DNA from: Nanobdellota archaeon
Lineage (GTDB): Archaea; Nanobdellota; Nanobdellia; Woesearchaeales; GW2011-AR4
Assembly (NCBI GenBank): GCA_038046385.1
Contig: JBBSWH010000012.1
Coordinates: 1-55,216 of the forward strand
Direction of reading: 5' to 3'
DNA: 55,216 nucleotides
The notes beneath the pieces were generated by a model. That model searched no databases. It worked only from the letters and a program-made list of their open reading frames with translations, and was not told the origin of the DNA. This document shows, piece after piece, positions 23,853-42,900 of the stretch (position 1 is the first letter of the stretch; every line of letters begins with the position of its first letter). Made by a program: the position numbers and the translations under genes.

Positions 23853-24392
23853 ATGGACCTGCAAACTGAAATTGGAAGCAACAACATTATCCTGCTAATG
23901 GTATCTAAAGAGGGGTACAGGAAGGGAATTTTAGATGTGTCGCAATTTCTGGATAAAAATTCGTCAAAAGTGTGCTATGTATGCGTCAATGAGCCTTACG
24001 GATTTGTGTCCGGCAACCTTGCCAAGAGCGGCATTGATGTAAAAAAATTCTTTTTCATAGACACCCTTACAAGAAACGTGCAGGAGCCGCCGCATGCTGA
24101 CAACTGCATTTTTGTATCGTCGCCAAGCGCCCTGACAGAGATAAGCCTCGCATTTTCAAAAGCGCTTAACGAGATGCACTGCGACGCGTCAATCTTCGAC
24201 ACGCTTTCCACAATGCTTGTTTACGAGAAGCCGCATGCCATAATCCAGTTTGTGCACAACCTGCTGACCAAACTTAGAATTTCGTCAGGAAAGGCAATAT
24301 TTGTCACGCTTAAGGATGATGTTAACTCAGAGCTTACAAAAGATCTTTTCATGTTTGTTGACAAGGTTGTTGATATGACTTTAGTTAATTAG
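23853..24392 (+). CDS. Inactivated KaiC/RecA-like domain protein (no Walker A)
   Basis: CYVCVNEPY, FFFIDTL, IFDTLSTMLVY and FVDKVV. Confidence 0.75.
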   Translation: MDLQTEIGSNNIILLMVSKEGYRKGILDVSQFLDKNSSKVCYVCVNEPYGFVSGNLAKSGIDVKKFFFIDTLTRNVQEPPHADNCIFVSSPSALTEISLAFSKALNEMHCDASIFDTLSTMLVYEKPHAIIQFVHNLLTKLRISSGKAIFVTLKDDVNSELTKDLFMFVDKVVDMTLVN

Positions 24393-24423: not shown

Positions 24424-27054
24424 ATGAAAATCAGCTCCAAACTGGGCATAATAATGGGTATTATAAGCATTTTTGGATTAGTGGCTGTAAATCTCCTGTT
24501 TTACGTAAATGTGAAAATCATTTTTGAGCAAAATCTTGGCAAAGAGAGTGTTGCATCCGCATATTCTATCATAGACAGCATAGACAGGGAAGTTTACAAT
24601 AGAATAGAAGATTGGCAGGTGTATTTAAAAGACCATCACTTGCAGGAATTCTTGGCAGCTTCAAACAGAGAATATGAACAGCTCGGGGATGTTCAGGAGT
24701 TCATAACCAAGAATGATCTGGAATGGATATCAGTTCCAAAAAGCAGCATTACCCCCTTCATGCAGAGCTTCATAAATAATCCGTTTTCTGAGGAATTACG
24801 TGAAAAAAGCAAATTTTATGAAAAAAAATATGGCTATAAGCTCTATGGAGAAATTTTCGTTACAAACAAATACGGCGCCAATGCCGCCCAAACAGGGAAA
24901 ACATCTGATTTCAGGCAGGATGACGAGGTGTGGTGGCAAAAGGCAACCCAGGAAGGCGTTTATATCGGCGATGTCAAGTATGACGAAAGCGCAGGCATAT
25001 ATTCAATAGAAATTGACTCCAGGGTCGAAGATAAAGATGGGAACTTTTTGGGTGTTCTTAAATCTGTTCTGAACATTCAGGAGGCAATCACCATCACCGA
25101 TAACCTGCTGGCGCAAAGCACATACAAAGACCCTGAAGTGAATCTGCTGGACCATGGAGGAAGAATAATCTATTCAAATGAGCAGTTCATTATTTTTGAT
25201 GAGTTTCCGCTGTTTGCAACATTTAATGGTTCAGACGGGTTTTTTATAAGGAATGACGTTGAAGCAGACAATCAGGATGCAGTTAAAGAAGAAATTTACA
25301 GCTACGCGCACTCTCGCGGCTATAAAAAATTTAAAGGAACCGGCTGGGTTGTCATTTTAGAGCATAATTCAAACACAGTTTTGGATTTGGCCAAAAATTT
25401 TGAAAAAATAGTTATAGCAATTTTTTTGGTGACGATGCTCATCGTGATGGCCCTTTGGATACCTCTATCACAAATTCTTACCAAACCCCTGCATGAGCTT
25501 CAAAAAGCAATTGAAGAGGTTGAAAAAGGAAACCTGACTGCAAAGCTCGAAACAAAAAGAAGTGACGAGATAGGGGAGCTGGCAGTGTCATTTAGCAGAA
25601 TGGTGAACGAGCTGAGCAAAAAACAGGAAAACATTGACAGTTACGAAAAAGGACTTCAGCTGAAAATAAAGGAAAAGACAGACGAGCTCAACGAGAAGAT
25701 AAAAGAGCTTGAAACCAACAAGTCAGCCATAATGAATATCCTGGACGATTCTGACGAGGCAAACAGGCAGCTTGTTGAGGCTCAGGAAAGCCTGAGGAAA
25801 AATATACTGGAGCTTAAGAAGCTTGACCAGCAGAAAGACCAGTTCATTTCAATAGCAGCGCACGAGCTTAAAACCCCTTTGACAAGCATCATGGGATTTT
25901 CGGATTTGCTGAAGAAAGAGTCCATTGCAGGCAATGCAGAATTAAGGACAAAATATCTTCTGACTATATTCAAGGACTCAAAAAGGCTGGCTGAGCTGAT
26001 AACCAACATACTTGACCTGTCAAGAATGGACATTGGAACATTGAAAATGGCATTGGAGCCAGTTTCCGCTTATGATCTGATGAAGGAAACAAAATGGCAG
26101 ATGGATATAATAATAAAAAATAAAGGCCTGGATTCAGAATGGCAAATCGAAGAAAACATTCCTTCTATCACAATAGACAAAAACAAGATAATACAGGTTA
26201 TATCCAATCTAATCAACAACGCAGTGCATTATACGGAAAAGGGAAAAATAACAGTACAGGCAAAAAAAGAAAATGATAATGTTTTGTTCAGCGTTTCAGA
26301 CACCGGCGCAGGAATACCGAAAGAGTCCCAGCAGAAGATATTCACAAGATTTTATCAGGTTGACAGCCCTCTCACAAGGAAGATAGGAGGGACTGGGCTT
26401 GGATTGTCGCTTTCAAAAGGCTTTGTCGAGGCCATGGGGGGGAAAATATGGTTCGAGAGCGAAGAAGGCAAAGGAACAGCTTTTTACTTCACTATCCCGC
26501 TTTACGGAGTGCAGGCAAAGAAAGAAGTCGATATAATGCAGGAAATAAAGAAAAAAGGATTTGCTCCAATTGATGATGCAACGAAAAAAAAGATAGTGGA
26601 GGAATATCTTGCCGAACACGAAGAAAAGCAGCAGAACAGCGCAGAAAGCCGAAAAATAGGGAAGGAACCGGAAATTTCATCACCCCAAACCAAGGAAGGC
26701 CAAGACATCAAAGAACCGAAAAAAAATAAAAAAATTGATATCAAATATTTGGAGAAAAAAGGCTACATCTTCAAGCTCCCCGGATTAGGAGGAAAAGATT
26801 TCCCTGCTGCAGACATAAAATCCAAGGAAATTATAGAAATCACAATAAAAAACCTTAAGGATGTGCTTGGTGTTGGGGTATACAAAAAGCTGGAATCGCC
26901 CAGCCTTAAGATAATGCCGGACGGAAAAGTTGAGATATCCGGCAACGAAATAGAAATACTGGATTCGCTTGCCTACATGAGCGAAAAATTCCTTGGTTCT
27001 GTAGCAACAGGGGCTCTAAAGAAAGAGATACATAGAATTTCAGGCAGCAAATAA
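24424..27054 (+). CDS. Membrane sensor histidine kinase: TM-dCache-TM-HAMP-HisKA-HATPase plus a C-terminal extension
   Basis: Cache motifs (EIFVTNKYG, WWQKA, YIGDVKYDES), HAMP (KPLHEL..DEIGELA.SF), H-box AAHELKTPLT, N-box NLINNAVHY, G-boxes DTGAGI and GGTGLGL. Confidence 0.92.
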   Translation: MKISSKLGIIMGIISIFGLVAVNLLFYVNVKIIFEQNLGKESVASAYSIIDSIDREVYNRIEDWQVYLKDHHLQEFLAASNREYEQLGDVQEFITKNDLEWISVPKSSITPFMQSFINNPFSEELREKSKFYEKKYGYKLYGEIFVTNKYGANAAQTGKTSDFRQDDEVWWQKATQEGVYIGDVKYDESAGIYSIEIDSRVEDKDGNFLGVLKSVLNIQEAITITDNLLAQSTYKDPEVNLLDHGGRIIYSNEQFIIFDEFPLFATFNGSDGFFIRNDVEADNQDAVKEEIYSYAHSRGYKKFKGTGWVVILEHNSNTVLDLAKNFEKIVIAIFLVTMLIVMALWIPLSQILTKPLHELQKAIEEVEKGNLTAKLETKRSDEIGELAVSFSRMVNELSKKQENIDSYEKGLQLKIKEKTDELNEKIKELETNKSAIMNILDDSDEANRQLVEAQESLRKNILELKKLDQQKDQFISIAAHELKTPLTSIMGFSDLLKKESIAGNAELRTKYLLTIFKDSKRLAELITNILDLSRMDIGTLKMALEPVSAYDLMKETKWQMDIIIKNKGLDSEWQIEENIPSITIDKNKIIQVISNLINNAVHYTEKGKITVQAKKENDNVLFSVSDTGAGIPKESQQKIFTRFYQVDSPLTRKIGGTGLGLSLSKGFVEAMGGKIWFESEEGKGTAFYFTIPLYGVQAKKEVDIMQEIKKKGFAPIDDATKKKIVEEYLAEHEEKQQNSAESRKIGKEPEISSPQTKEGQDIKEPKKNKKIDIKYLEKKGYIFKLPGLGGKDFPAADIKSKEIIEITIKNLKDVLGVGVYKKLESPSLKIMPDGKVEISGNEIEILDSLAYMSEKFLGSVATGALKKEIHRISGSK

Positions 27055-27112: not shown

Positions 27113-27859
27113 ATGGGTAAAACATCAAAAAGCATTGTTTTTCTGGTAGTATACTCTCTTATGGTACTTGCAATATTCTTCTTTAGGCTAGGTGGAAATT
27201 ATTACATAAAAATTGTTGATTGGTTAACTTATATTACACCATTAATATCCGTTTTCTTTGGGTATACTACCTTTAAATATTTCGGGAAAGAAAGCAAGCA
27301 GGGAAAATCTATTTTGATTCTGACCTTTGCAACCTTTTTGTTCTTTGCTGCAGAAGTGATATGGAACCTGCTCGGAAATCCTGTTGTTTCTATTGCAGAC
27401 CTGTTTTGGTTTTCAGGATTCTTTTTGATTTATGCTGCGATTATCTACTCAATTTTAATGGTTTACGGAGATTACTTCAAAAATAAAAAAAGAGTTCTCA
27501 TAATAGCCGCTATATCTATTATTGTGTCATTTTTTTACTTTAAGCTGCTGCCTTTGTCATGGAACTCAGAAATAAGCCCTATAGAGAATGTAGTTACAAC
27601 AGGCTATATATTTGCAGATCTTGTGCTCATTATTCTGCTGGTGATTATGCTTTCAATTGTCTTCTCAGGAAGCTACAGCTTATTTTGGATTGTGTTTGCC
27701 CTTGCAATTCTAATACGGGTAGTAAGCGATGTCCTTTACACGCTAAACTATGAATCCTATGAAGTGGGAAGCATGATAGATTTAGGATGGCTTTTTAATT
27801 ATATCCTCTTTGCATTAAGCTTTATTGTGCTTAAACATAAAGCTGAAGCACTGCTCTGA
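27113..27859 (+). CDS. Multi-pass (7-8 TM) membrane protein resembling membrane sensor input domains
   Basis: Alternating hydrophobic helices with intramembrane acidic motifs (AEVIW, ADLFW, YIFADL, SDVLY, DLGW). Confidence 0.75.
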   Translation: MGKTSKSIVFLVVYSLMVLAIFFFRLGGNYYIKIVDWLTYITPLISVFFGYTTFKYFGKESKQGKSILILTFATFLFFAAEVIWNLLGNPVVSIADLFWFSGFFLIYAAIIYSILMVYGDYFKNKKRVLIIAAISIIVSFFYFKLLPLSWNSEISPIENVVTTGYIFADLVLIILLVIMLSIVFSGSYSLFWIVFALAILIRVVSDVLYTLNYESYEVGSMIDLGWLFNYILFALSFIVLKHKAEALL

Positions 27860-27969: not shown

Positions 27970-28335
27970 TTAACCTAATGCCTTTTTCGCCCTTTTTACA
28001 AGATCATCATTGTCAAACGGCTTTGTTATATAGTCAAGCACATTAAGGTGATCGAGAGTTTCTTTACCTGTTTCAGAAAATCTTGCAACCGTAAGAAACA
28101 CAATCTTGAAGTTTTTTGTGTCTTCATTTTCCCTTATCTTCTCAACAGTTTCCCTTCCGCTCATTCCAGGCATCATCATGTCCATCAATATTAAGTCTGG
28201 CTTCTCTGTTTTGAGCTTATCGAGGCATTCCTGGCCGGAAGCTGCGTCAATCACTTCAAACCCCTCAGATGAGAATATTGCTGTTATCAACTCTCTAAGG
28301 CTCGGCTCATCATCAACAACCATTATTTTTGACAT
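27970..28335 (-). CDS. Single-domain response regulator (REC)
   Basis: IMVVDDE, phosphoacceptor PDLILMDMMMP, FLT and YITKPF. Confidence 0.93.
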   Translation of the reverse strand: MSKIMVVDDEPSLRELITAIFSSEGFEVIDAASGQECLDKLKTEKPDLILMDMMMPGMSGRETVEKIRENEDTKNFKIVFLTVARFSETGKETLDHLNVLDYITKPFDNDDLVKRAKKALG

Positions 28336-28379
28336 AGTCCTTTTATTTTTTCCTTATTTATTAAGCTTTCTATTAAGAA

Positions 28380-28940
28380 TCAATCATCCACAAAATCTAT
28401 TGACTCGTCTGCAAACATTTTAAGGTCTTTTACGAGGCTTTCATCATATTCTTGTAATCCACCATTCTCTTTTAGTATTATAAACACTTTGTTGATGTTC
28501 TGCTGCTTTTCTTCTGTTGTAAGCTCATGCGTAAAGCGCAGTATGTCATGGGTTTGCTCATAAACAAGCAGCGATGATATAGTGTCAAATATGACTATGC
28601 TGCACTTTTTCTCTGCTATTGTCTTGCTTATTGCAGACTTTATCAAGTCCAGCTTGTTTCCTCCTTCTTTTATGAAAATGCAGTTTTCCAATGGTAATGG
28701 GGATTTATAATGGCTGCTCAAAATATCTATGAAAAAGAACTTTTCAATGCCAACACCTAGCCTTTTTAATGTGCCGGCAACATCCTCGACAGGCTTGCTT
28801 AAGCATACATAGCATATTTTTGAATGATTCTCTCCTACGCTTCTGACAAGCTCATCAAGCTTCTTTTCATACTGCTTTTCTGACAGCAAAACCAACAGAA
28901 ATTTGTCTTCACTTGTATTTTTTAGCAATTCCATCTTCAC
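28380..28940 (-). CDS. Inactivated KaiC/RecA-like domain protein (paralog of 23853..24392)
   Basis: CYVCLSKP, FFFIDIL, NCIFI, IFDTISSLLVYE and KDLKMFAD. Confidence 0.75.
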   Translation of the reverse strand: MKMELLKNTSEDKFLLVLLSEKQYEKKLDELVRSVGENHSKICYVCLSKPVEDVAGTLKRLGVGIEKFFFIDILSSHYKSPLPLENCIFIKEGGNKLDLIKSAISKTIAEKKCSIVIFDTISSLLVYEQTHDILRFTHELTTEEKQQNINKVFIILKENGGLQEYDESLVKDLKMFADESIDFVDD

Positions 28941-28979
28941 GCTAAATAAGAGGGCAACTAGTATATAAAAAATTTGGAT

Positions 28980-28994
28980 ATTTTGGGATAAATT
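28980..28994 (+). repeat. 15-bp direct repeat ATTTTGGGATAAATT, copy 1 (copy 2 at 33790-33804)
   Basis: Identical 15-mers in the two promoter regions flanking the five genes at 29095-33697. Confidence 0.6.
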
Positions 28995-29094
28995 TACGGC
29001 AATTGAGGATAAATAACGTTAAAAACAGAGTAAAAACTCAAAAATACAAACTAAATTCGAAAACTTTTTATATTGTCCGCGAACTTTTATCTTT

Positions 29095-29397
29095 ATGGGG
29101 ACAATCTTGAGTTCACGGATGAAAGATGACGGCAAGATAGTCTTTGAAATTTCTGTGGATTATGAGGAATCAATACAGCTGCAGGGGCATATGGACAATA
29201 TACACATTTTTTCAGAGAATGTTTCTGACATTGAAACTGGCATAAGCCAGCGCGGCCAGAACGAGGCCACAAAATATTTTCTCATTCCAAAGGATTTAAG
29301 AAAAGGGCTCAAATTCAGCGCAAAGGCGCATTGCCAGAAGATTGAAACCAAGGCAAAAACAATATTCATTTATGTTGTTGACAAGGCAGGTTTGTAA
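29095..29397 (+). CDS. Small KaiC-associated hypothetical protein (possible AbrB-like swapped hairpin)
   Basis: 100 aa with RG.N..TKYFLIPKDLR. Its stop is 1 nt before the KaiC start. Confidence 0.7.
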   Translation: MGTILSSRMKDDGKIVFEISVDYEESIQLQGHMDNIHIFSENVSDIETGISQRGQNEATKYFLIPKDLRKGLKFSAKAHCQKIETKAKTIFIYVVDKAGL

Positions 29398-29398
29398 A

Positions 29399-30100
29399 AT
29401 GGACAAAGTAAAGACGGGGATAAAAGGATTTGACAAGCTTGTAGATGGAGGATTCCCAAGGGGAAAGAGTATACTGCTCAGCGGAACCCCCGGGACATGC
29501 AAGACAATATTCGCGCTCCAGTTTTTGCACAATGGCGCCATGGAGTCAAAGGAAAAAGGGCTGTACATTTCATTTGAGGAAAGAACCCAAAGCCTGAAGA
29601 ACCAGGCGCTGCAGTTTGGGTGGGATTTTGATAAGCTCGAGAAGAGCGGAATGGTGAAAATAATAAGCATTCCTCCCAAAAGCATTAAGGAATCAACAGC
29701 AGCTGAAATAATAAAGATGGCAAATGAGGGTAATATCAAGAGGCTTGTTGTTGACTCTCTTTCCGTGCTTTCAATAAACGCCCCCACCACATATACAAAA
29801 GTTTCTGAGCTGACAAACATATCCATAAAGAGGTTTATGTACAGATTCATAAATGATTTAAGGGACTCAAACAGCAACATAACCTCATTGTTAATCTCCC
29901 AGACGACAAACGGCCAGCTATCAAGGGACACCGTTTCAGAGTTCATATGCGACGGAATCATCCACATAAGCTATGAAAGCCTTGGAGGGGATTATTCAAG
30001 AAGCCTTATAATAAGGAAGATGAGGGAAACAAATAATGATGAGGATGTGCATCCCCTTGAGATAGGAAAAAACGGGTTAATAGTTCACGACCTCAAATAG
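29399..30100 (+). CDS. KaiC-like single-domain ATPase (second copy)
   Basis: Start reassigned to ATG 29399 (MDKVKTGIKGFD). Variant Walker A GTPGTCKT, FEER, LVVDSLS, EFICDG and RKMR. Confidence 0.9.
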   Translation: MDKVKTGIKGFDKLVDGGFPRGKSILLSGTPGTCKTIFALQFLHNGAMESKEKGLYISFEERTQSLKNQALQFGWDFDKLEKSGMVKIISIPPKSIKESTAAEIIKMANEGNIKRLVVDSLSVLSINAPTTYTKVSELTNISIKRFMYRFINDLRDSNSNITSLLISQTTNGQLSRDTVSEFICDGIIHISYESLGGDYSRSLIIRKMRETNNDEDVHPLEIGKNGLIVHDLK

Positions 30101-30156
30101 CAAAGCTATAAATATAACCATCGACATAGTTTTCAAATCAAAACTTCTTAACCCAT

Positions 30157-30822
30157 ATGAAAAACATACAGTCAGAGAATAAATTCGTCGATAAATCCAA
30201 TGCGCACGGCTTGTTCAACTTCGACAAGGACGGGACACTGAGGATTGCGGGTGTTGCAGCTTTCATGATGCCAATGACTTCTCTTGCAATTCAGTATTCT
30301 CTTATGAGCAAACATCTTGAGAAAAAGAAACTCGATGACATAATTTATTATGTTGCGAAGATACAGGGAGTTGTTGCTGTAAAAATTTTGAGGGATAAAT
30401 TCGGGATTAAGTCAAAAAAAGAGCTGTTTTTCACAAGCCTTGATCAGGGCAGCATGATTGGGCTTGGAAAAGACGAAGTGATAAGATTCAGCGAAAAAGA
30501 CAAGCATGTTATCCTAAAAAAACAAGTGTCTCCTTATGAAGATGCATATACAAAAACCTTTGGGCATCAAAAAGAGCCGATAGGCCATTTCTTCAGGGGT
30601 GTGCTAGCAGGAGTCTTGGATGAATTATTTGAAGAGCCGATGGTAGTCATTGAAAGGCAATGCAAAGCAGCAGGAAACCCTTTTTGCACATATGAAGGCT
30701 TTCCAGTAAGCTCATCAGGCTCAAGAAAAATAACAGAAACCGAAAAGCACAAGATACCAGCTACTGAAACTGATTTCCCTGAAATGGAAAACTTAAAGAG
30801 GGCTATGGGCTTTCTAAAATAA
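30157..30822 (+). CDS. V4R (4-vinyl reductase) ligand-binding domain protein
   Basis: GLGKDEV, HFFRGVLAG..ELF and ERQCKAAGNPFCTY fit the V4R E-x2-C-x3-G-x3-C signature. Confidence 0.85.
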   Translation: MKNIQSENKFVDKSNAHGLFNFDKDGTLRIAGVAAFMMPMTSLAIQYSLMSKHLEKKKLDDIIYYVAKIQGVVAVKILRDKFGIKSKKELFFTSLDQGSMIGLGKDEVIRFSEKDKHVILKKQVSPYEDAYTKTFGHQKEPIGHFFRGVLAGVLDELFEEPMVVIERQCKAAGNPFCTYEGFPVSSSGSRKITETEKHKIPATETDFPEMENLKRAMGFLK

Positions 30823-32200
30823 CAGCGCGGTTAATCAGCATAGTCTCTTTCTCTAATGATTCCAAAAACTTTAAGACTGCCGGGTCATTTATTTCTTCTG
30901 TAAAAAATTTTGGCGGATTGTCAACAGGGGAAATTTCAATGTAAGCTTCTGTATTGTAGCCATCAACTTTTCCTGAAGTAATCTTATCCAATAAAAATCC
31001 CATTTCTTTGTAAAGTTTTGTGCTGCCAATCTCCATTATGGACACAATATGTGTTATCCCCTGTTTTTTTGCATACTCATAACCAGCGCGCAGCACTTTC
31101 CTGCCAGTCCCTCTTGGAGCAAATGGAAGTGATATCCACCTTCCAGGCTCCCAAACAACCTTTCCATTCTTCCTCAAATAATCTAAATTCTGCTGCGTAT
31201 CTGCAGGAAGCCCTAAATCTTTCGAATCCATTACAAATCTGATTGTGGCAAGTATCTTGCCGCCATGCTCCGTCACCAAATGAACGGAATTATCATCAAA
31301 TTTGTCCCACTCCACCATTTTTGCGTCCTGCTCTTTTGTTGACTCCAGAACTCCAAACCTTTCCTTTGTAAAATGATACCTTATCCTGTAAAGCTTCTGC
31401 ATCTCCTCATCTTTCGCAAATCTTATTTTGATTTGCTCAGGAGATAATTTATAATAATCATTTTTTTTCCTAACAACTATAAAGTGCCCCTGCCCGAGGT
31501 ATGTCCTGTAGCCCGGCATCAAATCATTTACAATAACATCTGAAAAACCGCAAAAATCAACCAAAATTTCCTGCAGCCTTTCTGTCGTGAAGAAGTGCTT
31601 TATGTTCTTTTCTAGTATTTCGTTCACATCTCTCACAATTTTAATATCCTCACTGAACTTTTCAAGAATGCCTGCGCGCTGAAATTCCTGATAAATAGTT
31701 TTTTGCAGCAGATTGAGATTTTGATTTGGCTTTGGGCCGCTGACAACAAGAATTCCGTCTTTTTTTAGCGAAGCATAAATCTTATCTGCCAAATCATAAG
31801 GGTTATCCAGAAGGTACATTACGTTTAGCATCACGGCCCCGTCATATCCTCCCGGCTCAAGTGTTATTTTTGTAATGTCTGCATTGATTACCTCAACATA
31901 CTTGCCAAGCCCCTCTTTTTCAATCTTTTTTCTGGCTCTCTCAATCATAGCCTGGTTATTGTCAATAGCAAGGACATTCACACCTCGCTTTGCAAGTTCT
32001 ATTGCAAGATTCCCTGTTGCGCATCCAAAATCAACAACTCTTTTGCACCCTTCAAGGCTTCTTACAGCATTGCTTATCAGTTTTTTGTAAAATGATGTCC
32101 GCGCAACAACATTGTCATAGCTTTCCGCGTACTTTGAAAATATATCCTCTTGCACATTTTCAACTTTAAAGCTATCGCTAATCAAAATTGATTTTTCCAT
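30803..32200 (-). CDS. Fusion of a class I SAM methyltransferase and a LuxI/FeeM-like GNAT acyltransferase
   Basis: N-terminal half: VVDFGCATG, AIDNN..MI, ADIT, YDG, LKKDG. C-terminal half: YRIRY, EWDKFDD, ATIRFV, GLP and VWEPGRW, matching the AHL-synthase / N-acyl amino acid synthase pattern. AGGTGG SD. Confidence 0.8.
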   Translation of the reverse strand: MEKSILISDSFKVENVQEDIFSKYAESYDNVVARTSFYKKLISNAVRSLEGCKRVVDFGCATGNLAIELAKRGVNVLAIDNNQAMIERARKKIEKEGLGKYVEVINADITKITLEPGGYDGAVMLNVMYLLDNPYDLADKIYASLKKDGILVVSGPKPNQNLNLLQKTIYQEFQRAGILEKFSEDIKIVRDVNEILEKNIKHFFTTERLQEILVDFCGFSDVIVNDLMPGYRTYLGQGHFIVVRKKNDYYKLSPEQIKIRFAKDEEMQKLYRIRYHFTKERFGVLESTKEQDAKMVEWDKFDDNSVHLVTEHGGKILATIRFVMDSKDLGLPADTQQNLDYLRKNGKVVWEPGRWISLPFAPRGTGRKVLRAGYEYAKKQGITHIVSIMEIGSTKLYKEMGFLLDKITSGKVDGYNTEAYIEISPVDNPPKFFTEEINDPAVLKFLESLEKETMLINRAVILESP

Positions 32201-32215
32201 TTTACCACCTACTTT

Positions 32216-33697
32216 TTATTTATTTTTTTGAAGCATGATTGCTGGCACCGGCTGCTCAATACCGGAATTGTAATTCCTGTAATGATACCAATAAGCGCCT
32301 GTCTTGCCGTTTTTCAGAGTATTCATCACCCTTTCAGAGCCGACAAGCTGATTATTTTCTCCGGATTTGCTTGTCATTTGGGGAATCATTATTCTGTTAA
32401 TGTCCCTGCCGACATAATCCCTCAGCTCGTCGAATATTTCAGGAATTTTGAACGAAGGATCCGCATAAAACACCGGGTCTGTCAGCGGCTCTCCTGATAT
32501 GTAAAATCCATCAAGAGATTCCCCCGAAACAACTTTTTTCTGGAATATGCCTGCAAGTTTTGTGCCGTTAAGAACGCCAAACCCGACAACAACGCCTATG
32601 ACCCACGGGTCAAGCGATTTTGCAAACTCAATTGTCTCAAACATTTTTTTCGGAGTATCCCCGGGATAGCCGAAAATAAGCTCGTGCATGACTGCAATCC
32701 CGTTATCCTTGCACATCTTGGTTGCATTTGCTATGTGATTGCGCCCAAACCATTTTCCAAGCGACTTTAATACCTCAGGGTCAGCGTGATCAACTCCAAA
32801 ATTTGCCCCGACAAAATTTGCCTTTGCAAGAAGAGAAGCATATTCTTCATCAAATGGGGATGGCTGGCAATATGTCCAGAACCTTACTTTATTTGGATAA
32901 CCTCTGGCTATTATTGCCCTTAAAACCTCTTTTGAATGGATGATTGGCATGTTGAACTCGCTGTCAGCAGTGTGTATGTCGTTGATTCCCATAGCAACAA
33001 GCTGATCAATTTCCTCGATGACATCTGCTATATCTCTTGTGTTGAAACCTTTTCCTTTTGCAATTGGCTCAATGCAGTATGAGCAGGACATCCCGCAGCC
33101 GTTGCTTGTCCTGACATTTCCCAATCCGCCGTTTTTGTAATACCATCTGTTGTCAATAAATTTTCTTTTTATTTTCCTTGCAAGCTGGCTTTTCCTGCCG
33201 TCAAAAATTCCCTCATCGCAATTGCCGAATTCCTTTATTGATTTGCCTTCATTGATTGCATTTGCAATTCCTACAATTAAGGCATCTCCAGGGCCTATAA
33301 TTCCATATTTCAATCCAAACCTTTTGAGCAGTTTTTCAGCATTGGAAGAAAAGCCAACCCCTCCAAGAATCATTTTTTCTGCCGGCACATGCAGCCTTAT
33401 CCTGCTTATCAGCCTATGATGCTCTTCAAGAAAAGAGCCCTTGGTTGGCAAGTCAAGAAATGACGGAAAATAAATATCTCCTGTATTTCTCAAGCTCAAT
33501 CCAACTAAATCCGGAGTTGATTTTTTAAAATAAGAATCAATTGATTCTATCGGGTCTTCTGCAGGCGTTAAGTCAAGAACTCCTACATCATGCCCTGCTT
33601 CTTCAAGTGCAGAGCCCAGTATATCAATTGCATACGGCCCGATTGGAGGTATTTGTATCCTGTTTAAATTAACCAAAGCGACCTTAGCCAACCCCAC
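32216..33697 (-). CDS. Cobalamin-dependent radical SAM methylase, TsrM (tryptophan 2-C-methyltransferase)-like
   Basis: B12-binding N-terminus (PPIGPYAIDIL, VGLSLRNT, GGVGFS, GPGD) and CGMSCSYC cluster motif. DNRWYYKNGGLG, EPIAKG, HTADSEFN and YCQPSPFDEE match TsrM as recalled. GTG start with a GGGGTGA SD. Confidence 0.85.
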   Translation of the reverse strand: MGLAKVALVNLNRIQIPPIGPYAIDILGSALEEAGHDVGVLDLTPAEDPIESIDSYFKKSTPDLVGLSLRNTGDIYFPSFLDLPTKGSFLEEHHRLISRIRLHVPAEKMILGGVGFSSNAEKLLKRFGLKYGIIGPGDALIVGIANAINEGKSIKEFGNCDEGIFDGRKSQLARKIKRKFIDNRWYYKNGGLGNVRTSNGCGMSCSYCIEPIAKGKGFNTRDIADVIEEIDQLVAMGINDIHTADSEFNMPIIHSKEVLRAIIARGYPNKVRFWTYCQPSPFDEEYASLLAKANFVGANFGVDHADPEVLKSLGKWFGRNHIANATKMCKDNGIAVMHELIFGYPGDTPKKMFETIEFAKSLDPWVIGVVVGFGVLNGTKLAGIFQKKVVSGESLDGFYISGEPLTDPVFYADPSFKIPEIFDELRDYVGRDINRIMIPQMTSKSGENNQLVGSERVMNTLKNGKTGAYWYHYRNYNSGIEQPVPAIMLQKNK

Positions 33698-33730
33698 TTC
33701 ACCCCTCTTTTTTGTATATTTATACCTATT

Positions 33731-33804
33731 TTTATCCGAAATATAGTAAAAATATAAACTTTGTGCTTATTTTTTATCCTAAAACAACAATTTTGGGATA
33801 AATT
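33731..33804. promoter_or_regulatory. Promoter/operator of the rSAM operon: TATA box plus TTTATCCNAAA inverted repeat
   Basis: TTTATCCTAAAA(33773-33784)/TTTTGGGATAAA(33791-33802), an extra TTTATCCGAAA at 33731-33741, and minus-strand TTTATATT at about 33751-33758. Confidence 0.5.
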
Positions 33805-33991
33805 ATGTACTATTCAATGCTATTTTATGCCAATATCGGTAATTAGCCGCAATAGCTGTTAATATCATCAAGAAAAAATATACATACTGAGAAATATTCA
33901 GAAATTTTAATACAGACTATTTTTGAAGAATTCTGGATAAGTTAATCCTAAATTTATCCTGTTTTTGAGTACGTTTTACTTACCTCGCTCA

Positions 33992-36900
33992 TCAGCTCTT
34001 CTCATAATTCGGCTTGTGCCGCCATGTTGATGTGGCAGTAACATCCAGGTAATACCCCTGCGTTGGGTCCATCCTCACAAAGTTCCTGTTGCTTGCAGAC
34101 GGAATCCAATAGTCCTTTCCTGACACGAAATAGTGCGATGTAACCTCAAACTTGTCGCCCGTTACATTGTACCTGTCCATTGCCCTTATGGAATTCGCAG
34201 GGCTTACAACAAGTGGGTACGGAGTAAATGAATTCTGTATCAGCTTTGATGCGTTTGGAGAATACCAGCCAACAACATTCCATCCAACCCCCAAGTCTAA
34301 AGTTGAATTGCTTGTCGGCACTTCTCCTACAATTGTTAGGTTGCATGATATGTTTACTTCAGCCCAATACCCCTTTCCGATTTCAAGGCTTGTGAAGTTT
34401 TTGCTTCCGGATGCAGGGAACCACGCGCTTCCGTTGTAATTGGTTCTCATGAAACTTGCTGATGTTGTATTGTAAACCCACAGCGTCTTTATGCATCCAA
34501 GCGGCTTAACCCTCAAATCGCTTCCGTTGTTGCTTCCGTTGAAAAGCCCGAAGTTGGTTATATTAAGCGGCAGGCTTATGAGATTCCAGTCTGATAACGC
34601 ATTTGAATTATTAACAAGTTCAAACTCAAATTTACCGACAGTTCTGTTGGAGGTGGCATTCACATTGCCTTTGACAACACTCACCCTGTAGAATCTTGCA
34701 GTCTTGTTTGCAGCATTTGTATCTGTATAGTTTGAATCAGTTGAAACTGTGAAATTAGGAGTTGCGCTGAATGGCTCATCATATCTGTCAATCATGTACA
34801 CATTAAATCTGTCAGCATATGTTATGTCGTTCCAGTCTAGCAGTATGCTCTCATTATCGCCTGCAAGAGTGGCATTGAAAGCAGTTACTGCCTGCACTAT
34901 CGTAAAGTTTCTGGCCTGGCTTGTGTTGATGTTTCCGGAGTCATCCCAGCATGTTACATTCCATCTGTGCGCACCGCCTGAAAGGTTCACAAATGTGAAG
35001 TTCACATAAGTTCCGTTTGTTATATTGAGGTTTGTGAGGTTAATCAGTCTGTCAATGGTGAAGTTGCATGTTATGTTCATGTCAACCCTGTCAGTCACAG
35101 TGAAATTGAACATGAGCTCGTTTGATGTTGTGTTGAAGTCATTTACAGGAGATATAAGCATCGGCGCTGGAGGAGTCATGTCTGTAAGGTTAAAAGCCAA
35201 TTCATCAAATGTTAATCTTAAATTTGCCCCAACAGAAGATCCGTTTGGAGTAAACCTCACTCTCAAATGCCCAAACCCGTCCTGAAGATGGGCAACATTT
35301 GTTATGTTTACATTAACCCACGTATTGACGTCGGTATTCTTGAATGTCTTGTTGGCGTTCAATGCAGTGTTTATGGTTACGTTGTCGTTGTTGTATGCAT
35401 AAACTGCCGTGTAATATGGAGTCTGTCCCATGCTATCAACTCTTACCCTTATGAAAATCTGGTCAAACGGAGCAGGGTCAGTGTTGTTGACTATGTTAAG
35501 CACCCTTACATTCACTCCGCTTCTTGCCTCCATGAAATTTTGAGTTGCAAAGTTGTTATCTGTTAATGGCACAGTTACATCAGTATATGCTGTACCTGCC
35601 TCGCTTGCTTCCATATTTGCAATGTTGGATGTTCTTCTTATGTTGCCGGGCGTCGCAAGCCCTGCTCCAGGATCAAGGCCTTTCATTCCGCCTGCTGATA
35701 TGTTGCCGAGCGTAAAAGTCATGTTGACATTGAAGCTCCCTCCTGTTTCAAATGTGAAATTGGCAATTTGCTCTTTTATCCCGTTTACTGTTACTTCTGG
35801 CTCCCAATATACAATTCCTTTTGACTCTGAATCAGAGTCTGTGAAATATGAAGTGTAGCTTCCAAATCTGCTTAAGTTGTATCTTATTGAAGATGATTCC
35901 ATTGTGTAATTTTCACCCTCTGAAGATGAGTTAACTATTCTCAAAATGTCAGCATCATTGTCGTTGCTTATATTAAAATCTTTGAAAATCCACTTTAATT
36001 CAACATTGGATATGTTTTTGCTTCCTATATTTCTTACATTGAAAGTTATGTTGTCATACTTGGAATTGGAATATGCTATTTTTGTGTAGTTAACCAAAAG
36101 GCTTTGGTCAAGCACCCTTCCGACAAACTGCACAAAAGTGTAGTTGCTTTCATTGTTGACTCCTGTCCTCTGGAAGTCCCACGTTACATTTCCGAAATCA
36201 AATGCAGTTGTTCCGTTTATTATTATGAGCCAGCTGTTTTTGAACCTTGAATCGCCGGGCGCTGTTGAGTTGAAGTTTACAACTTCCTCGCTGTTGTTGA
36301 CCCACCAGTTGACTCCTGTTTCAGCAGCCATGTGGAAGTAGGTTGCGCCGTTTATTGTTTTTCTTTCAGCATAATGGAATTCAGACAGGTTTGCAAGCGT
36401 TGGCGTTATTTCTATGAAAGGCGATGATACAATCACGCCAACCCCTTCAGAGCAGTTCGAAGTTACATTCACAATATATGTTCCTTCTATTGTTCCGTTA
36501 AGTACCCACCCGACGGAAACGCTTGTGCTCCCGTTAGTGAAATTGCCTACTGAAATGTTGACTGGAGTAATTGCTACGAGCCCGGTCTGGTTGGATATAT
36601 TCATCCTGCAGCTGCTCACAGAGCCGTTCACTGCAGTCAAAGTTGCGTTGACAAAAATGGTTTCATTTAGATACCTGCTCGTGTCATAAATCGGATTGGT
36701 TATTGAAACATTTCCTACGGAGTTGATTACAGTGAAATTGTACCATTGCGTTACCATTAGGTTGCCGGCGCTGTCATTAGCATAGAACCTGTAATAAACA
36801 AGATTCCCTCCAGAAAGATTGCCTGAATATATCGTGAAATTGAATGTGTCTCCTGCTGAATTCATAAGGCTGTTGTTCCTGAATATATTGCTCCAGTTGC

Positions 36901-39900
36901 CCTCTATGAATGTCTCGTTGAGGAAATAATTATCCGTTATGGTCAGGAAGAGCGAAACGTTGTTGAAATTGTACACTTCAACAGGAGTCACAGAATCAAG
37001 CGTTATCGAAGGCGCCGTCAGGTCAACAGTCAAATTCCTCGCTTCAGAAGATCCCATATTGCCCCATGTGTCGTTTGCATACACTCTGTAATGGTGCGCT
37101 CCCTCTGCCAGCATCTCCTTCGATATAAAGCAGTTTGCAGACTGGCCGTTCCTTCTCAGGGGCATGGACTCATTCGCATTGTCGAACTCAAGTATGCAAT
37201 CGGCTATAGAATGGCCGTCATATATTGACGTGTTTATGAAAATAGTGTCAGATCCTATCAAAGATCCGTTTGCCGGCGTCGGATTCGTGAAGTTTATCTC
37301 AGGAGCAGCCAAATCAGTGTAGTTTATGCTGACATTCTCGAGATACGGGGTAATATACTTGTCACTTGTTGTTAAAATGGATTTGTACTGGACGTAGCGC
37401 GCCACCGTCTGCACAAGCGGTATTTCAGGAGCATTGTAAATGCCGCTCCAATCGCTCCACATGTTGGAATTGTTGCTTACCCTTGTCTGCAATGTGATGT
37501 TAGTTGATTCTGTCACGTTCACATAAAACTCTCCGGCAGGGTTGTAGGCTGCGTCTGCTGTCCCGCCAGTCATCGCCTTATCTGCGGCAAATCCGGCGCT
37601 TCCTCCGTTAAATGCGGTGCTGCGGTTTATAAAGAACGCCGCCAGGTCGTTTGCAGTGTTGTCAACCGCAAAGCCTAGAATATCTCCGGGCATCAGGCTT
37701 GCCGGCAGCGTATAGGCGAATACAGAGCCGAACGCAACTGGAGGGACCTCATCACCGGTATTTGAAACCATGCTCCTGTTCCTGAAAAACAGGGCGCTGT
37801 CCCCCGCTCCTGTGTCTATTGAGCACCCTACTACATCGCTCATGTTGAAATTGGCAGGTATTGTATTTACCCCGTTGCCTGCCAGGAATGCAATGTCAGC
37901 GCCGAATGTGGAAGCAGCGCTGGAAAAGCTGCCATTGATGAGGGATAGGTATACTAAATTTGTTGCGTCATCGTCAACCGCCACGCATGCAATGTCATCA
38001 TAGCTCCATCCTGCCGGCAAAGTATACCTATTCAATGCCCCTGTAAAGTCAACACTTGAAACTAAATCGGCTTGCGCGCTGTCAACGCCAAAGCTCCCGT
38101 TTCTGTAGAATGCCGCAGCAAGGTTGTCTGCATCATCAACCGCAATTCCCATAACATCGCTTGAATTGGGAAGGGAGGAGCTCCATGAAATATAGCTAAG
38201 GGCTGTGTTGTTTGCTCCTGTGTCAAACACCCTTGATGTGAAATTTCCTGAAAGGTTATATGTTTTGTATGTTTCCATCGTGCTGATTGTCGTGTAATTC
38301 AGCGTAACGTTTGCAGGATTGCCGGATCCTGTAACATTTGCCCTGTAAAGCAAGCCAAGCCCGAAATCCACATCAGTTGTATCGACAAAAGAATGCGGCA
38401 GCAGCGGAGGCGCATCTATTGTTATGTTGTAAAACACAGACTCATTGGTGTTTCCGGCACGATCAGTGCAGTTTATGCGCCAGTCGTAATCGCCGTTATT
38501 CAGGTTAGTCGATATGGAGTTTGAAACATTCTTTGTTATCATGCCAGACACGGAATTGACGCTGCCGTTTATTATAAGCGAGCAGTTTGCGACTGTGAAC
38601 TGGTCGGTAACATTAAAACTGAAAGTAACCAGTGACCTGTTCTCGTACGAATGGTTTGCCGGATTTAAAGGCGTAACTTGCGGGGCAGAATTGTCCACCA
38701 CATACTTGAAATAGCCGTCCGAATCAGTTGAGCGGTTGAACATGTCATACGCTATGACTTTCCAGAACCATTCCCTGTTTACAGCAAGGTTGTCTGTTGC
38801 ATTCAGGCTGTTGTTTGCAGGGCTGCCGGCTAGCATGTACGCAAAATCAGCAGACGAGAAGTCCTCCGAGTTGTCAACCAGTACAGTGTAGTTAAGGAAA
38901 TTTTCATCATACGCTTCTGTCCAGTTCAATGCCGGGCTCTGGTTACTGGATTCTGTGCTGTTTGCAGGCATTGAAAGGTTGAAGTCAGCAGGCGCAAGCA
39001 AATCTATCCTTACTGTAAAATTGGTTGAGTTAAAAGCGTCTCTTTCCAGCAAGTCATAGCACCTTACATTCCATATATAAGTTCCGTCAGATGCGTTCAT
39101 GGCGAGTATTGTGTTTGCTCCCGATACTATTGAGGTGTTCGATATATTTTCCATAAACACTGATGTAAAGTTTCCGTACAGTGTACAGTTTCTTGCATTC
39201 GGCTCAAATGCAGTGAAATTGAAGAATACTGTCGTGTTTGGATAAAGCGTGTTGTTTGCCGGTGCATTGAGCCTTACAACTGGCTCAAGATTGTCCAATA
39301 TTATCTGCCTTGTCTCGGTGCTGTTTTCAAAGCTTACTCTGTCCCTTGCAGTCACATTGTAATAATACCTTCCATCAGCCAGGCTTGTGAAATTGAAGCT
39401 TAAGTTTGCAGGCATATCTTCCGACGTGATATTCGTCTCATTCACCAGCGCAAACTCAGAATTGTACAGATAGAATGTTGCATTTGCAAAATTGGTTTCA
39501 TTTATTGTGACATTTATGAAAGTGTAATTCTGCGCGGCATATGTGTTGTTTGATTCAGTCGGCTCTGTGAAATTTATTCTGAGTATTGTGCTGTCTAGCG
39601 TTATCTTTCTGGTCTCTGTTGAATTTTCCAGCAAAGCCATGTCTCTCGCGGTTACATTGTAATAATAAACCTCATTTGCATTTGCAAGCCTAGAGAAATT
39701 GATGAAGAATGACTGGCTGTCGGCTGTGAAATTTGTTTCGTTCACAAGGTCAAATGAAGAGTTGTAAAGGTAGAAAGTTATGTTTGCGAAATTGCTTTCA
39801 TTTACTGAAACATTGACGAGTATGTAATCACTTACAATGTATGTGTTATTTGGCGCAGTTGGGTTTGTGAAGTTTATCTTCGGTATTCTTGTGTCGATAG

Positions 39901-42900
39901 CAAGCGTGAAATTCGTGGAATTAAAGTTGAAGTTTCCTGCGCTATCGTTACACCCTATGTTCCACTCTATTGTAAGGTCTCCAAACGATCTTACAATGAA
40001 CTCGTCAACGCCGCTTGCAACAGCATAAGTGACTTCCCTCTCTCCAAACATTCCTGTTTCATTCGTGTACAGCGCACAGTCCGAGAGCCCTGCGTCAAAT
40101 GCAGTGTATCCGAACAGGACATTGGAGAACTGGCTGTAAGTCTTGTTTGCAGGCTCATTCAGCCTCACTGCAGGCATCGTGTTGTCAATCCTTATTTGTA
40201 TGGTTGTCGAGTTGAGCAGGCTGTCGCTGTCTGTCGTATTGAGCCTTGCAAAGCAGCTGTCAGAGTCTTCTGCACACTGGCTGAACCCTTCTTGCGTTAT
40301 TGTGTTGAATGAGCAGTTGCTCTCGTTCGTTGCACATATTGTGGAAGGGCTTGCGAAAAGCGGGCTGTCATCATATTCCAAAAGGTACATTGAAATATTC
40401 CTGTCATCAAATGAATCTGAGAAGTTAAAAATTACAATTCCTCTCAAATGTTGCGTATCCTGCGGATAGGTAAATACTGCTTCAGGATGGTCGTTTATTG
40501 TTGCGTTTGGAATCTGCGGCGAGTAGTCATTTGGAGTGTTTGTTCCTTTTGCTTTGCATCTTAACGTAATATTGCTGTTTCCGGAATCAAAGGAAGTCCT
40601 TACTGCAAAGGTTGCATTGCAATCCTGCCCCTGCACGAGGGCGCCGCATGACTTGTTCATCGTGTATCCTGTAAGCTCGCTTGAAAAATTATTTATGTTA
40701 TTCCAAATCCCAAGAGTGGCATCTGCATATTGCGGGAAAATGGTTACATCGCTGCACGGAGCTTGGCTTTCTTCACTGCATGTGGCGTTGCAGGCCATAT
40801 AAAAAGTGTAATTTCTGCCTAAATCAGACTCATTTATGACAAAATCCGAGAGAGGATAAACCAGTGTTGAATTTATGAATATCACTGTCTTTTGCGTCCA
40901 GTTTAAATTTGGACTTTGAGATAGGTTGATGTTGCCTGCAAAATCCTCGGCATAGACTGCAGTCCAGTTTGCAGAGCCTTCTTCTGTTACGAGGCGTGCA
41001 TAGCTCCAAACATTTCCTCCAAACCCGCCGCAGCTGTTAGGATCGGTTGTGTCATTTGTCATGGAAAAATTTGTCAATCCGGAATCCGGCCTGTCTATTT
41101 CTGCATAAACATATTTTATAGATGAGAAAGTGTCGTTAATAGTCACATTAAAGCATATTTTGCTGTTCACCAGAACTTCAGTCATGTTGATGGACTGGTT
41201 TAATATTGTAGGGAAAGTCTTGTCAATCTTTATAACCTGTGTTTCAGAAGCGTTCTGGCTTCCGGCATAATCAGCACACTGCACATTCCAGTTGTATATT
41301 CCGCTGTTAAGGTTTGCAGAGAAGTTTTGATGCGCATTCTCTGTGATGCTGGTATTGGTTACAACTCTAGTATCTGCTGTTATGTTGACAAAGTCAAGCG
41401 TTAAATATATTGTTTCTCCCGGGCCAATTGCCGTAAACCTTGCTTTTATGCCGACTTTCACCTGATTGCTTGTAGTGTTCACGAAGTCCCTTGCATCGCC
41501 GTTTATGTTGAACATTTTTCTTTCTAGGTTTCCATTAGTCCCTTTTGTAGCTGTGTTGTTAAGCGTTCCAAGGCTTACCCATTTATTATTTGAGAAATTG
41601 TACACTGTTAAATTCTGGTGGGCTTCAACAACAGCCCCGCCTAATGGGGCAGTTCCGTCACATTCTGCATCAGCAGCTCCGGTGTGGCAGTATCTTACAT
41701 CAAACAACAAATCTTTGACAATGCTTCTGTCAACATTGCTCAAATTGAAAGTAGTATTTACGCTTGCGTCAACTATTGATTCTCCTGTAGTTCCTACAAA
41801 CCAGATTGAATTGTCATTTGGCTTTGTTATGTTTTCTATGCTTCCTCCGGAGCTTGCAAACGTTCCTGTGAGGCTGCCGTTTGAAACATTTGCATAAGGC
41901 TGGCCTGAAGGAAGGCTCATCAGCAGGCTGCAGTTCTTTGTTCCAAGGAAATCATCGCTTACATTGTAGCTGAACAGCTGTATAATGGAGCTGTTCCATG
42001 TATTGTTCCTTGGCCCTTCAGGGAAAACAACAGGCGGGAAAGGGTCAATATTCACTGTCCTGGTTTCCGTCTGGTTGTTTCTTCCTGCAGAGTCATTTGC
42101 CCAGAAATAGAAGCTGTATGCTCCGCTCAGTCCAGTTTTTGTAAGATTCGTAAATATTTCGGTCCCATAGCCCATTGTCTGGTTTGCAATTGAGTCATTC
42201 AGCGAGAAAATCAGCGTATGCGGATTATTGTCTGAATGGGTAACATTGAATATCTGCGTTGCAGAAGACAAATTTGTGTTGTTCAATGGCGTCGGCTCTG
42301 CAAATGCTACACGCGGATTATTCACATCAATCATTATTGTGAAGTTTGTTGCATTGTATCCGAAATTTCCTGCAGTGTCGTTGCAGAACACATTCCATAC
42401 AAACAGCCCTTCATTGTTTATTGTCGTGTTGAAAAAGCTGGTTATTCCTTCTGAAGGGGACTCTGTCTGGTTTGCCTTCCATATTCCGGAAAAGTTTGTA
42501 AAAAAGGTGCAGAAATTTATGTTTATGTCAGTTGGAATGTAGCTCATCTGCAGCATTCCGCTTGTGTTGTATGTATCATTAAGCGGGCCTGTCAGGCTGA
42601 CTGAAGGGCTTTGTGTGTCTATTGTGAAGTTTACCGTGCTGTTTGCGCTTGAATTTAAGCCGTCTGACAGGCTTACATTCAGGATATAATATCCGTCAGA
42701 GGCGTTGAATGTCGTGTTTACAGAAGATGTCTGATTTAATCTCCCGTTCACATAATACAGTATGCTGATTGCGTCATTGTCAATATCTGCTTCAAAAGTC
42801 ACATTAAGCTGGATAGGCTGCTGGTTTGTGTATAAATCGCTTGCCGGAGCCAATATGGCTGAGTTCGGAATAAAGTTCTGCACAACTGCAAACTGGCTCA

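Follow-up and report, generated by a model that had tools for sequence, protein, structure and literature searches.

Introduction

Among described chemical signalling systems, the LuxI/LuxR circuits, those of BjaI, RpaI and MesI included, provide one of the closest comparisons for a five-gene region that we have analysed in a DPANN archaeon. The region lies in a 55,216-nt stretch of DNA (the window, to which coordinates refer unless another contig is named), contig JBBSWH010000012.1 of a Nanobdellota archaeon of the order Woesearchaeales (assembly GCA_038046385.1; 1.28 Mb in 19 contigs, 85% complete), and consists of two convergent units, in which three plus-strand genes, encoding a 100-residue protein (small100), a KaiC-like ATPase and a V4R protein, face two minus-strand genes, encoding a methyltransferase-FeeM fusion and a TsrM-type enzyme. 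As in the LuxI/LuxR circuits, the gene of a GNAT-fold N-acyl synthase adjoins those of presumed sensors and regulators, and a motif common to the module's two promoters suggests feedback. The differences are nevertheless considerable: the place of the receptor would be taken by a V4R protein acting with a KaiC ATPase and a putatively AbrB-like protein, a methyltransferase is fused to the synthase, and the score of the synthase for the LuxI family Autoind_synth (PF00765) is 17.7 bits, below the cut-off of 24. Nor does the genome show a LuxR-type domain. An earlier reading of the DNA letters alone (the original prediction) had proposed a signal synthesis-and-sensing circuit 'without LuxR', and this is borne out by the absence of any match to Autoind_bind (PF03472) in the 85%-complete genome.

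Each component has its own described relatives. FeeM, from soil environmental DNA (structure 2g0b), is said by Van Wagoner and Clardy to use fatty acids carried on acyl carrier protein (acyl-ACP). The window enzyme exceeds the Pfam FeeM cut-off with 40 bits, a score that rises to as much as 113 bits in the order, and FeeM is the best structural match of its GNAT domain; in contrast to FeeM, it is found in a genome that gave no ACP match, has methylating enzymes as fusion or pairing partners and is linked to a regulator cassette. [quoted passage not shown] The V4R domain reportedly binds hydrophobic ligands, with signalling in cis or in trans (PMC2253512). With the V4R sensors XylR, DmpR, MopR and PoxR the window family shares a conserved Glu and Cys (E-x2-C-x7-C), conserved Cys residues having been noted in PoxR and MopR (PMC5847659); unlike them it is stand-alone or tandem and not fused to an AAA+ and HTH regulator, and its output would run through separate KaiC and AbrB-like proteins. 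The single-domain KaiC stands among REC, histidine kinase and inactivated KaiC-like genes, a setting in keeping with that of the archaeal KaiC-like ATPases. These were reportedly viewed as signal-transduction hubs by Makarova, Galperin and Koonin in 2017.

DPANN archaea depend on other cells, and we know of none in which a chemical signalling system has been characterised. In the available part of a survey of quorum-sensing genes in the candidate phyla radiation (CPR) and DPANN, LuxI homologues are listed for CPR only (PMC7567580). Our literature search, outside which the 2017 paper on KaiC-like ATPases and its supplements fell, found no description of this neighbourhood. As its V4R-enzyme pairing and its control motif recur across the order, we regard the module as a strong candidate for a chemical sensing circuit not described before, and it offers a synthase, a candidate receptor, a transducer and a candidate DNA binder with its operator, each testable in vitro. 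If the reading developed below is true, stand-alone V4R proteins, one class of archaeal KaiC-like ATPases and an unannotated, DPANN-restricted family of 100-residue proteins would each acquire a definite role.

Results and discussion

Two convergent operons form one unit

The evidence firmly supports the view that the two operons function as a single unit, which shares cis-elements and is centred on the FeeM-type acyltransferase and V4R. The regulator operon comprises the small100 open reading frame (ORF; 29095-29397, plus strand), the gene of the single-domain KaiC-like ATPase (29399-30100, plus; PF06745, 189 bits, E 8.5e-56) and that of the stand-alone V4R protein of 221 residues (30157-30822, plus; PF02830). 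The KaiC ORF had been listed from a TTG at 29342, but its likely real start is the ATG at 29399, which matches the start of the homologues and falls 1 nt past the stop of the small100 ORF. On the opposite strand lie the genes of the 465-residue fusion of a class I S-adenosylmethionine (SAM) methyltransferase to a FeeM-type GNAT domain (30803-32200, minus; assigned from Pfam and a fold model) and of the 493-residue TsrM-type cobalamin-binding radical-SAM-fold methyltransferase (32216-33697, minus; assigned from TIGR04428, PDB 6wte and hallmark residues). The ORF coordinates agree with the 15-bp gap between the enzyme genes and the 20-bp 3' overlap of the V4R and fusion genes that the original prediction described, and the Shine-Dalgarno (SD) sequences that it gave both enzyme genes can be recognised in the purine-rich, SD-like stretches GAGGGGTGA and GGTGG upstream. 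Its proposed coupling of the enzymes to V4R and KaiC gains new support from the two lines of evidence that follow, the motif common to both promoters and the co-variation of V4R with FeeM.

The exact 15-mer ATTTTGGGATAAATT has only two copies in the 55-kb window: each of the two promoter regions contains one, at 28980-28994 and at 33790-33804 respectively. The outer bounds first drawn around the region coincide with them, 28980 being where the first copy starts and 33804 where the second ends. The operator-like sites of the regulator-operon promoter (28980-29014, plus) consist of this 15-mer and a second GGATAAAT 21 bp downstream, at 29007-29014; four of the window's five copies of GGATAAAT fall in the two module promoters. 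The enzyme-operon promoter region (33698-33991, minus) has four GGATAA sites within 250 bp and includes, at 33731-33802, the densest GGATAAA cluster of the genome. Enrichment is seen across genomes: taking at 21 loci the 250 bp that precede the small-protein gene and the 250 bp that precede the first enzyme gene, we count 92 GGATAA sites in 10.5 kb (8.8/kb), compared with 29 (1.27/kb) in the 22.8 kb of remaining intergenic DNA at those loci and 208 in 272 kb of coding DNA (0.76/kb), so that the module promoters are enriched about 7-fold over other intergenic DNA. At two of the loci (L215 and L216) a single divergent promoter serves both genes, and its sites are counted twice in these figures; without the two genomes that suggested the motif there are 83 sites in 9.5 kb. 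The consensus is WWTWTnGGATAAAW, with site pairs often phased at 20-21 bp. At least one site is present upstream of 34 of the 41 small100 genes, including those of modules with a different KaiC and other enzymes, so that the motif travels with the small protein; GGATAA sites are absent from the two loci whose small proteins have diverged furthest (35-39% identity). On this pattern small100 is the putative binder of the TnGGATAAA sites. Elsewhere in the same genome as the window, GGATAAA clusters are found near genes for S-adenosylhomocysteine (SAH) hydrolase and Lrp, a Big_13 surface protein, GlxRS and others. The first of these is a pair of sites in the divergent promoter of the SAH hydrolase and Lrp/AsnC regulator genes (G000:C4:38933-38969, L249); it would suit SAM-consuming enzymes, but genome-wide such pairs do not exceed the frequency expected by chance.

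The second line of evidence comes from the 10 loci that have a short V4R, between which mean pairwise identity is 0.54 for the small protein, 0.55 for KaiC, 0.30 for V4R and 0.21 for FeeM. V4R and FeeM thus diverge together while KaiC and the small protein stay conserved; the pairwise identities of V4R and FeeM are correlated (Mantel r = 0.69, a value attained in 1 of 5001 permutations), and remain so given KaiC (partial r 0.66) and after the closest pairs are dropped (r 0.60-0.78). For KaiC and V4R r is 0.24, and for the small protein and V4R -0.02. Whether through co-variation or through transfer as a block, V4R and FeeM are coupled.

Conservation in the genus and order

Homologues were sought in 43 genomes of the genus and in 401 genomes of the order, the draw being identical in each order search; four genomes in the order tallies are unpublished. 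One metagenome-assembled DPANN genome of the same order and a different family (G141, locus L042) has retained the full set of five genes, arranged convergently as here, at 42-63% identity to the window (small protein 63%, KaiC 60%, V4R 45%, fusion 42%, TsrM-type enzyme 49%). Both of its module promoters also carry GGATAA sites, and the unit is inverted relative to a histidine kinase/REC/KaiC-like block, yet adjacent to it. The search for co-occurrence suggested in the original prediction thus finds the two enzymes as neighbours elsewhere, again beside V4R and KaiC, which is contrary to what that prediction had named as its refutation.

Within the genus, FeeM is found in 8 of the 43 genomes, once in each, and small100 in seven of the 43, which are the same genomes and where it is on the same contig; in the eighth FeeM genome the contig ends just after KaiC. 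The locus was read in six of these genomes; in a seventh (G010, L131) the regulator side was read and FeeM placed from the genus search. Compared with the window the small proteins are 35-82% and the KaiC proteins 45-77% identical, V4R is a tandem duplication of the window's V4R unit (about 400 residues), and the enzymes take the form of a methyltransferase-FeeM fusion (three loci, and one more interrupted by a TAA), a reversed FeeM-methyltransferase fusion or two separate genes. None of the six loci has a TsrM-type gene.

In the order, the small100 family occurs in 65 genomes and FeeM exceeds its cut-off in 20. Small100 and FeeM lie within 4 kb of each other on one contig in 15 of these 20 (13 of 18 when the unpublished G163 and G252, both among the 15, are removed); two further FeeM genomes have a small100 gene at the edge of another contig, and of the remaining three, two have no small100 match and one has small100 on another contig. 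Reading the loci around small100, 34 from the order and seven from the same genus, we find V4R tail-to-tail with an enzyme cassette in 24, the window included, and FeeM in 22 of the 24; at one of the other two (L237) the contig ends just after the methyltransferase gene. FeeM is partnered in these cassettes by a class I methyltransferase, by a B12-binding radical-SAM enzyme with or without an acyl-CoA dehydrogenase, by an iron redox enzyme and an acyl-CoA dehydrogenase, or by ThiF. At L236 a fusion of a B12-binding radical-SAM enzyme to a methyltransferase stands beside a FeeM-domain protein, that is, the window's three catalytic domains joined otherwise. A second type of module (L231, G050:C1; L232, G389:C33; and similar loci) has a well-conserved small protein of about 60% identity, a divergent KaiC of about 30% identity and a protein of about 371 residues without a Pfam match; in place of FeeM it carries a UbiA prenyltransferase, an HMGL-like protein and an oxidoreductase, and it too has GGATAA sites upstream of the small-protein gene.

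The enzymes

In the fusion, a methyltransferase (approximately residues 1-245; Methyltransf_25, 63.2 bits) precedes a GNAT acyltransferase (approximately 246-465), which matches FeeM (PF21926) with 40.4 bits over residues 291-402, the cut-off being 27. Residues 246-465, modelled from an alignment of 19 sequences (pLDDT 84, pTM 0.80), have FeeM 2g0b as their top Foldseek match (E 3e-9, TM 0.73 normalised to the target), followed by the CoA-dependent acyl-homoserine lactone (AHL) synthases BjaI, RpaI and MesI, and also by TofI and LasI, in agreement with the LuxI/FeeM fold originally predicted. The accompanying view of the product, an N-acyl amino acid or an AHL-like compound, stands for its first half: N-acyl amino acid synthesis is favoured and AHL synthesis less likely because the LuxI score is below its cut-off. 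One paralogue (L123) reaches 24.9 bits for PF00765. Because the 85%-complete genome gave no match to PP-binding (ACP) domains and the sister cassettes carry acyl-CoA dehydrogenases, we infer that acyl-CoA is the likeliest donor; the same genome has one AMP-binding ligase match. To methyltransferase models for PrmA and for RiPPs (peptides made on the ribosome and modified after translation) there are weak matches. Close relatives of the fusion are few, amounting to six proteins at E <= 1e-3 among 8000 scored candidates, and a metagenome scan with the fusion alignment returned generic methyltransferase matches and no close relative. Two homologues that share one 4904-bp NCBI contig (P0004 and P0010) are probably a third adjacent pair. 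In an Actinomycetota metagenome-assembled genome (JACUUO010000035.1; L061, 9938-11686) bacterial FeeM and class I methyltransferase genes are adjacent, flanked by genes for a GAF-SpoIIE phosphatase and a GGDEF-HD-GYP protein, and the pairing therefore also exists outside archaea, again among signalling genes. A Woesearchaeota locus (L090) has FeeM, a 222-residue unknown protein and a methyltransferase.

The TsrM-type protein, like TsrM, has B12-binding (PF02310, 35.6 bits) and Radical_SAM (PF04055, 69.8 bits) domains and the cluster motif CX3CX2C (C201-x3-C205-x2-C208), and it matches the solved TsrM structure 6wte with E 3e-81. Its TIGR04428 score of 318.3 bits is below the equivalog cut-off of 500, and for this reason we file it as TsrM-type, not TsrM; its second-best NCBIfam match, 'lipid biosynthesis B12-binding/radical SAM protein', has 197 bits against a cut-off of 360. 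At the level of hallmark residues the label 'TsrM-like' does hold: R70 and E247 align with Arg69, which lies under the corrin, and Glu273, which sits on the unique iron, the residues described as making TsrM a non-radical methylase (PMC8992657). Since a Glu on the iron is common among radical-SAM enzymes (PMC8992657), Arg70 weighs more than Glu247. Both are kept in the G141 orthologue, in the bacterial relatives and in Streptomyces laurentii TsrM, and both are missing from the seven other B12-binding radical-SAM enzymes of the sister cassettes. The known TsrM methylates free tryptophan (PMC8992657). The window protein differs from it in being about 80 residues shorter, with 32% identity over 60% of the query to the S. 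laurentii enzyme, and in belonging to a clade of 470-510-residue proteins from Acidobacteriota, Myxococcota and DPANN; a thiopeptide cluster is absent. Its nearest relatives (50-59% identity, 470-510 residues) include proteins of Bryobacteraceae, Labilithrix and Blastocatellia and the DPANN copies are no closer (43-49%), a distribution compatible with a possible transfer of the gene between bacteria and DPANN. In its own genome it is the only match to a B12-binding domain. The G141 protein (L220, 5772-7403) departs from the window protein by one extra residue in the cluster motif, which reads Cx3Cx3C and not Cx3Cx2C, and by two inserts of about 25-30 residues. The third gene of this type in the order (L253, 7350-11026 of G306:C41) follows a gene for a 210-residue protein without a Pfam match; a TrmB regulator gene and the genes of an ADP-forming acyl-CoA synthetase pair are close by.

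The regulator proteins

Small100 belongs to a family of 233 representative clusters among 1.84 billion proteins, its ESM Atlas relatives being unnamed Nanobdellota clusters, and a search with 35 family members assigned none of them to a Pfam family. In a model of pLDDT 81, residues from about 40 to 100, the C-terminal half, align best in a VIA comparison with AbrB-type swapped-hairpin DNA binders. The top nine matches are all of AbrB/MazE/SpoVT/VapB type (Z 4.6-3.0), with unrelated proteins at Z <= 2.2; the best, a weak match, is C56 of pSSVi (Z 4.6, rmsd 2.8, 51 residues aligned), and AbrB-N, SpoVT, VapB and MazE are among the others. As these scores are low we treat the AbrB-like fold as a lead, which fits the motif data, and regard small100 as a putative AbrB-like DNA-binding output on the strength of the model.

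KaiC is 44-77% identical across 24 loci. The P-loop of the window protein reads GTPGTCKT where the consensus of 24 homologues is GTPGTGKT, a Cys replacing the Gly before Lys. The V4R protein, the only match to its domain in the genome, scores 40 bits against a cut-off of 31, and its E166, C169 and C177 are invariant in 12 aligned sequences; by homology it is a putative ligand sensor.

Proposed function and its alternatives

We consider that the two operons form a self-regulated unit whose enzymes make a methylated N-acyl amino acid and whose V4R, KaiC and AbrB-like proteins sense it, a reading to which we assign a probability of roughly one half. The FeeM-type GNAT would N-acylate an amino acid or similar amine from acyl-CoA, a donor proposed in view of the lack of ACP matches. 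The class I methyltransferase fused to it would add a methyl group, for example as a methyl ester, and in this variant the TsrM-type enzyme would supply or modify an indole or other sp2-carbon moiety such as 2-methyl-Trp, giving a small hydrophobic methylated N-acyl amino acid. V4R would bind this product or a precursor and modulate the KaiC ATPase, KaiC would control small100, and small100 would bind the phased TnGGATAAA sites of both promoters, so closing a feedback loop. The genetic linkage, the motif, the domain identities, the fold matches and the co-variation are observed; chemistry, ligand, relay order and any action between cells are what we infer from these components, and the quorum or host sensing of the original prediction would be a conceivable use of such a loop. 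More tentatively, and in our view improbably, the DPANN order as a whole might possess diversifying autoinducer circuits, in which N-acyl amino acid (methyl ester) signals made by FeeM-type enzymes from acyl-CoA would be paired with a cognate, co-evolving V4R, KaiC would pass the occupancy of V4R on to an AbrB-like factor acting at TnGGATAAA in both promoters, and B12- or SAM-dependent methylation would set signal specificity; if true, this would amount to pherotype-like communication between kin, or between host and symbiont, independent of LuxR.

A number of observations weigh against the self-regulated unit. The operons are convergent and so not co-transcribed, the module has no exporter gene, and neither the acceptor substrate of FeeM nor the target of the methyltransferase can be read from sequence. 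The TsrM-type gene is an accessory, rare in the order (3 of 401 genomes), and that of G306 is outside the module, on another contig and among unrelated neighbours. At L234, the second of the 24 loci lacking FeeM, a 312-residue unknown gene takes FeeM's place beside V4R, and L217 is a FeeM cassette without a V4R gene. The 10 loci used for co-variation are related, and transfer of V4R and enzymes as a block would mimic it. Genome-wide, the 354 GGATAAA sites include nine clusters of at least two within 70 bp where a Poisson expectation gives about seven; the motif argument therefore rests on recurrence between genomes, and we claim no wider regulon. Foldseek with the small100 model returned no match at E <= 1e-3, and the AbrB-like match is weak at Z 4.6. 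Among the sequencing runs that match the region, all are of DNA and none of RNA.

The linkage, motif and co-variation data would fit equally well if V4R sensed an incoming hydrophobic compound, such as a fatty acid, an indole or an aromatic, and induced enzymes that acylate and methylate it, the module then being a pathway-specific regulator for assimilation or detoxification and not a signal loop. Known V4R sensors respond to hydrophobic or aromatic compounds (PMC2253512, PMC5847659), and the high variability of the enzyme cassettes (acyl-CoA dehydrogenase, iron redox enzyme, ThiF, UbiA) is in line with such substrate-responsive tailoring. Yet every solved FeeM-type relative matched is a biosynthetic synthase of N-acyl amino acids or AHLs, and a 1.28 Mb genome with no ACP match and a single B12 enzyme is unlikely to hold a dedicated catabolic route, so we regard this explanation as possible but doubtful. 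We think it rather less probable that the enzymes remodel the membrane, making an OlsB-like N-acyl amino acid lipid that is then methylated while V4R, as lipid sensor or carrier, tunes the membrane. The homology of V4R to Bet3 (PMC2253512), the lipid biosynthesis model as second match of the radical-SAM enzyme, the Acetyltransf_5 matches in paralogues and the UbiA prenyltransferases of related small100-KaiC modules would all suit it; but the window enzyme bears a TsrM-type signature that the other cassette radical-SAM enzymes lack, the known TsrM acts on the free amino acid (PMC8992657), and a core membrane function would not usually be confined to 8 of 43 genus genomes.

Proteins are frequent substrates of GNATs and class I methyltransferases, and with the weak matches to PrmA and RiPP methyltransferase models in mind one might suppose that KaiC, small100 or a peptide is modified here, in a CheR-like or RiPP-like manner. 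This is very unlikely: the best fold matches are small-molecule N-acyl synthases, the acyl-CoA dehydrogenases of sister cassettes point to fatty-acyl chemistry, and no precursor-peptide ORF of at least 60 residues is seen in the module. That the operons are merely unrelated neighbours held together by local synteny might be thought from their convergence, which keeps them from being co-transcribed, but is scarcely credible given their perfect co-occurrence in the genus, a unit inverted yet intact in G141, the motif in both promoters and the permutation of the domains.

Flanking genes and genomic context

To the left of the regulator operon lie genes for a DUF7504/KaiC-like protein (23853-24392, plus; below the KaiC cut-off), a HAMP/HisKA/HATPase_c histidine kinase (24424-27054, plus), a protein without a Pfam match at E <= 0.01 (27113-27859, plus), a REC protein (27970-28335, minus; 100 bits) and a degenerate KaiC-like protein (28380-28940, minus; below the KaiC cut-off), all assigned by Pfam searches. 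Of the neighbours originally predicted, the REC gene is confirmed, but the supposed Cache kinase has no detectable Cache domain in its first 349 residues, and the ORF taken for a PAS gene, 27113-27859, matches no Pfam family, PAS included. The flanking signalling genes have homologues beside the module in G141 and in the same-genus loci, and short KaiC-like/DUF7504 proteins under the KaiC cut-off recur with REC genes on the flanks of many related modules.

Reads of four DNA runs show no joint at the two 15-mers and thus lend no support to the idea that the unit is cut out as a cassette; the single joint listed, from 28330 to 33457, was set aside, its shorter side being only 21 letters. Relatives carry the names 'Nanobdellati archaeon', 'DPANN group archaeon' or Nanobdellota, which supports the DPANN lineage, and near-identical DNA is present in groundwater metagenomes from five studies. 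Directly upstream of the enzyme-operon promoter is an ORF of 4408 residues (33992-47218, minus) whose sole Pfam match is one Big_13 Ig-like domain, and a further ORF of 1480 residues (17364-21806) has weak Ig-like matches; from these domains both probably encode surface proteins.

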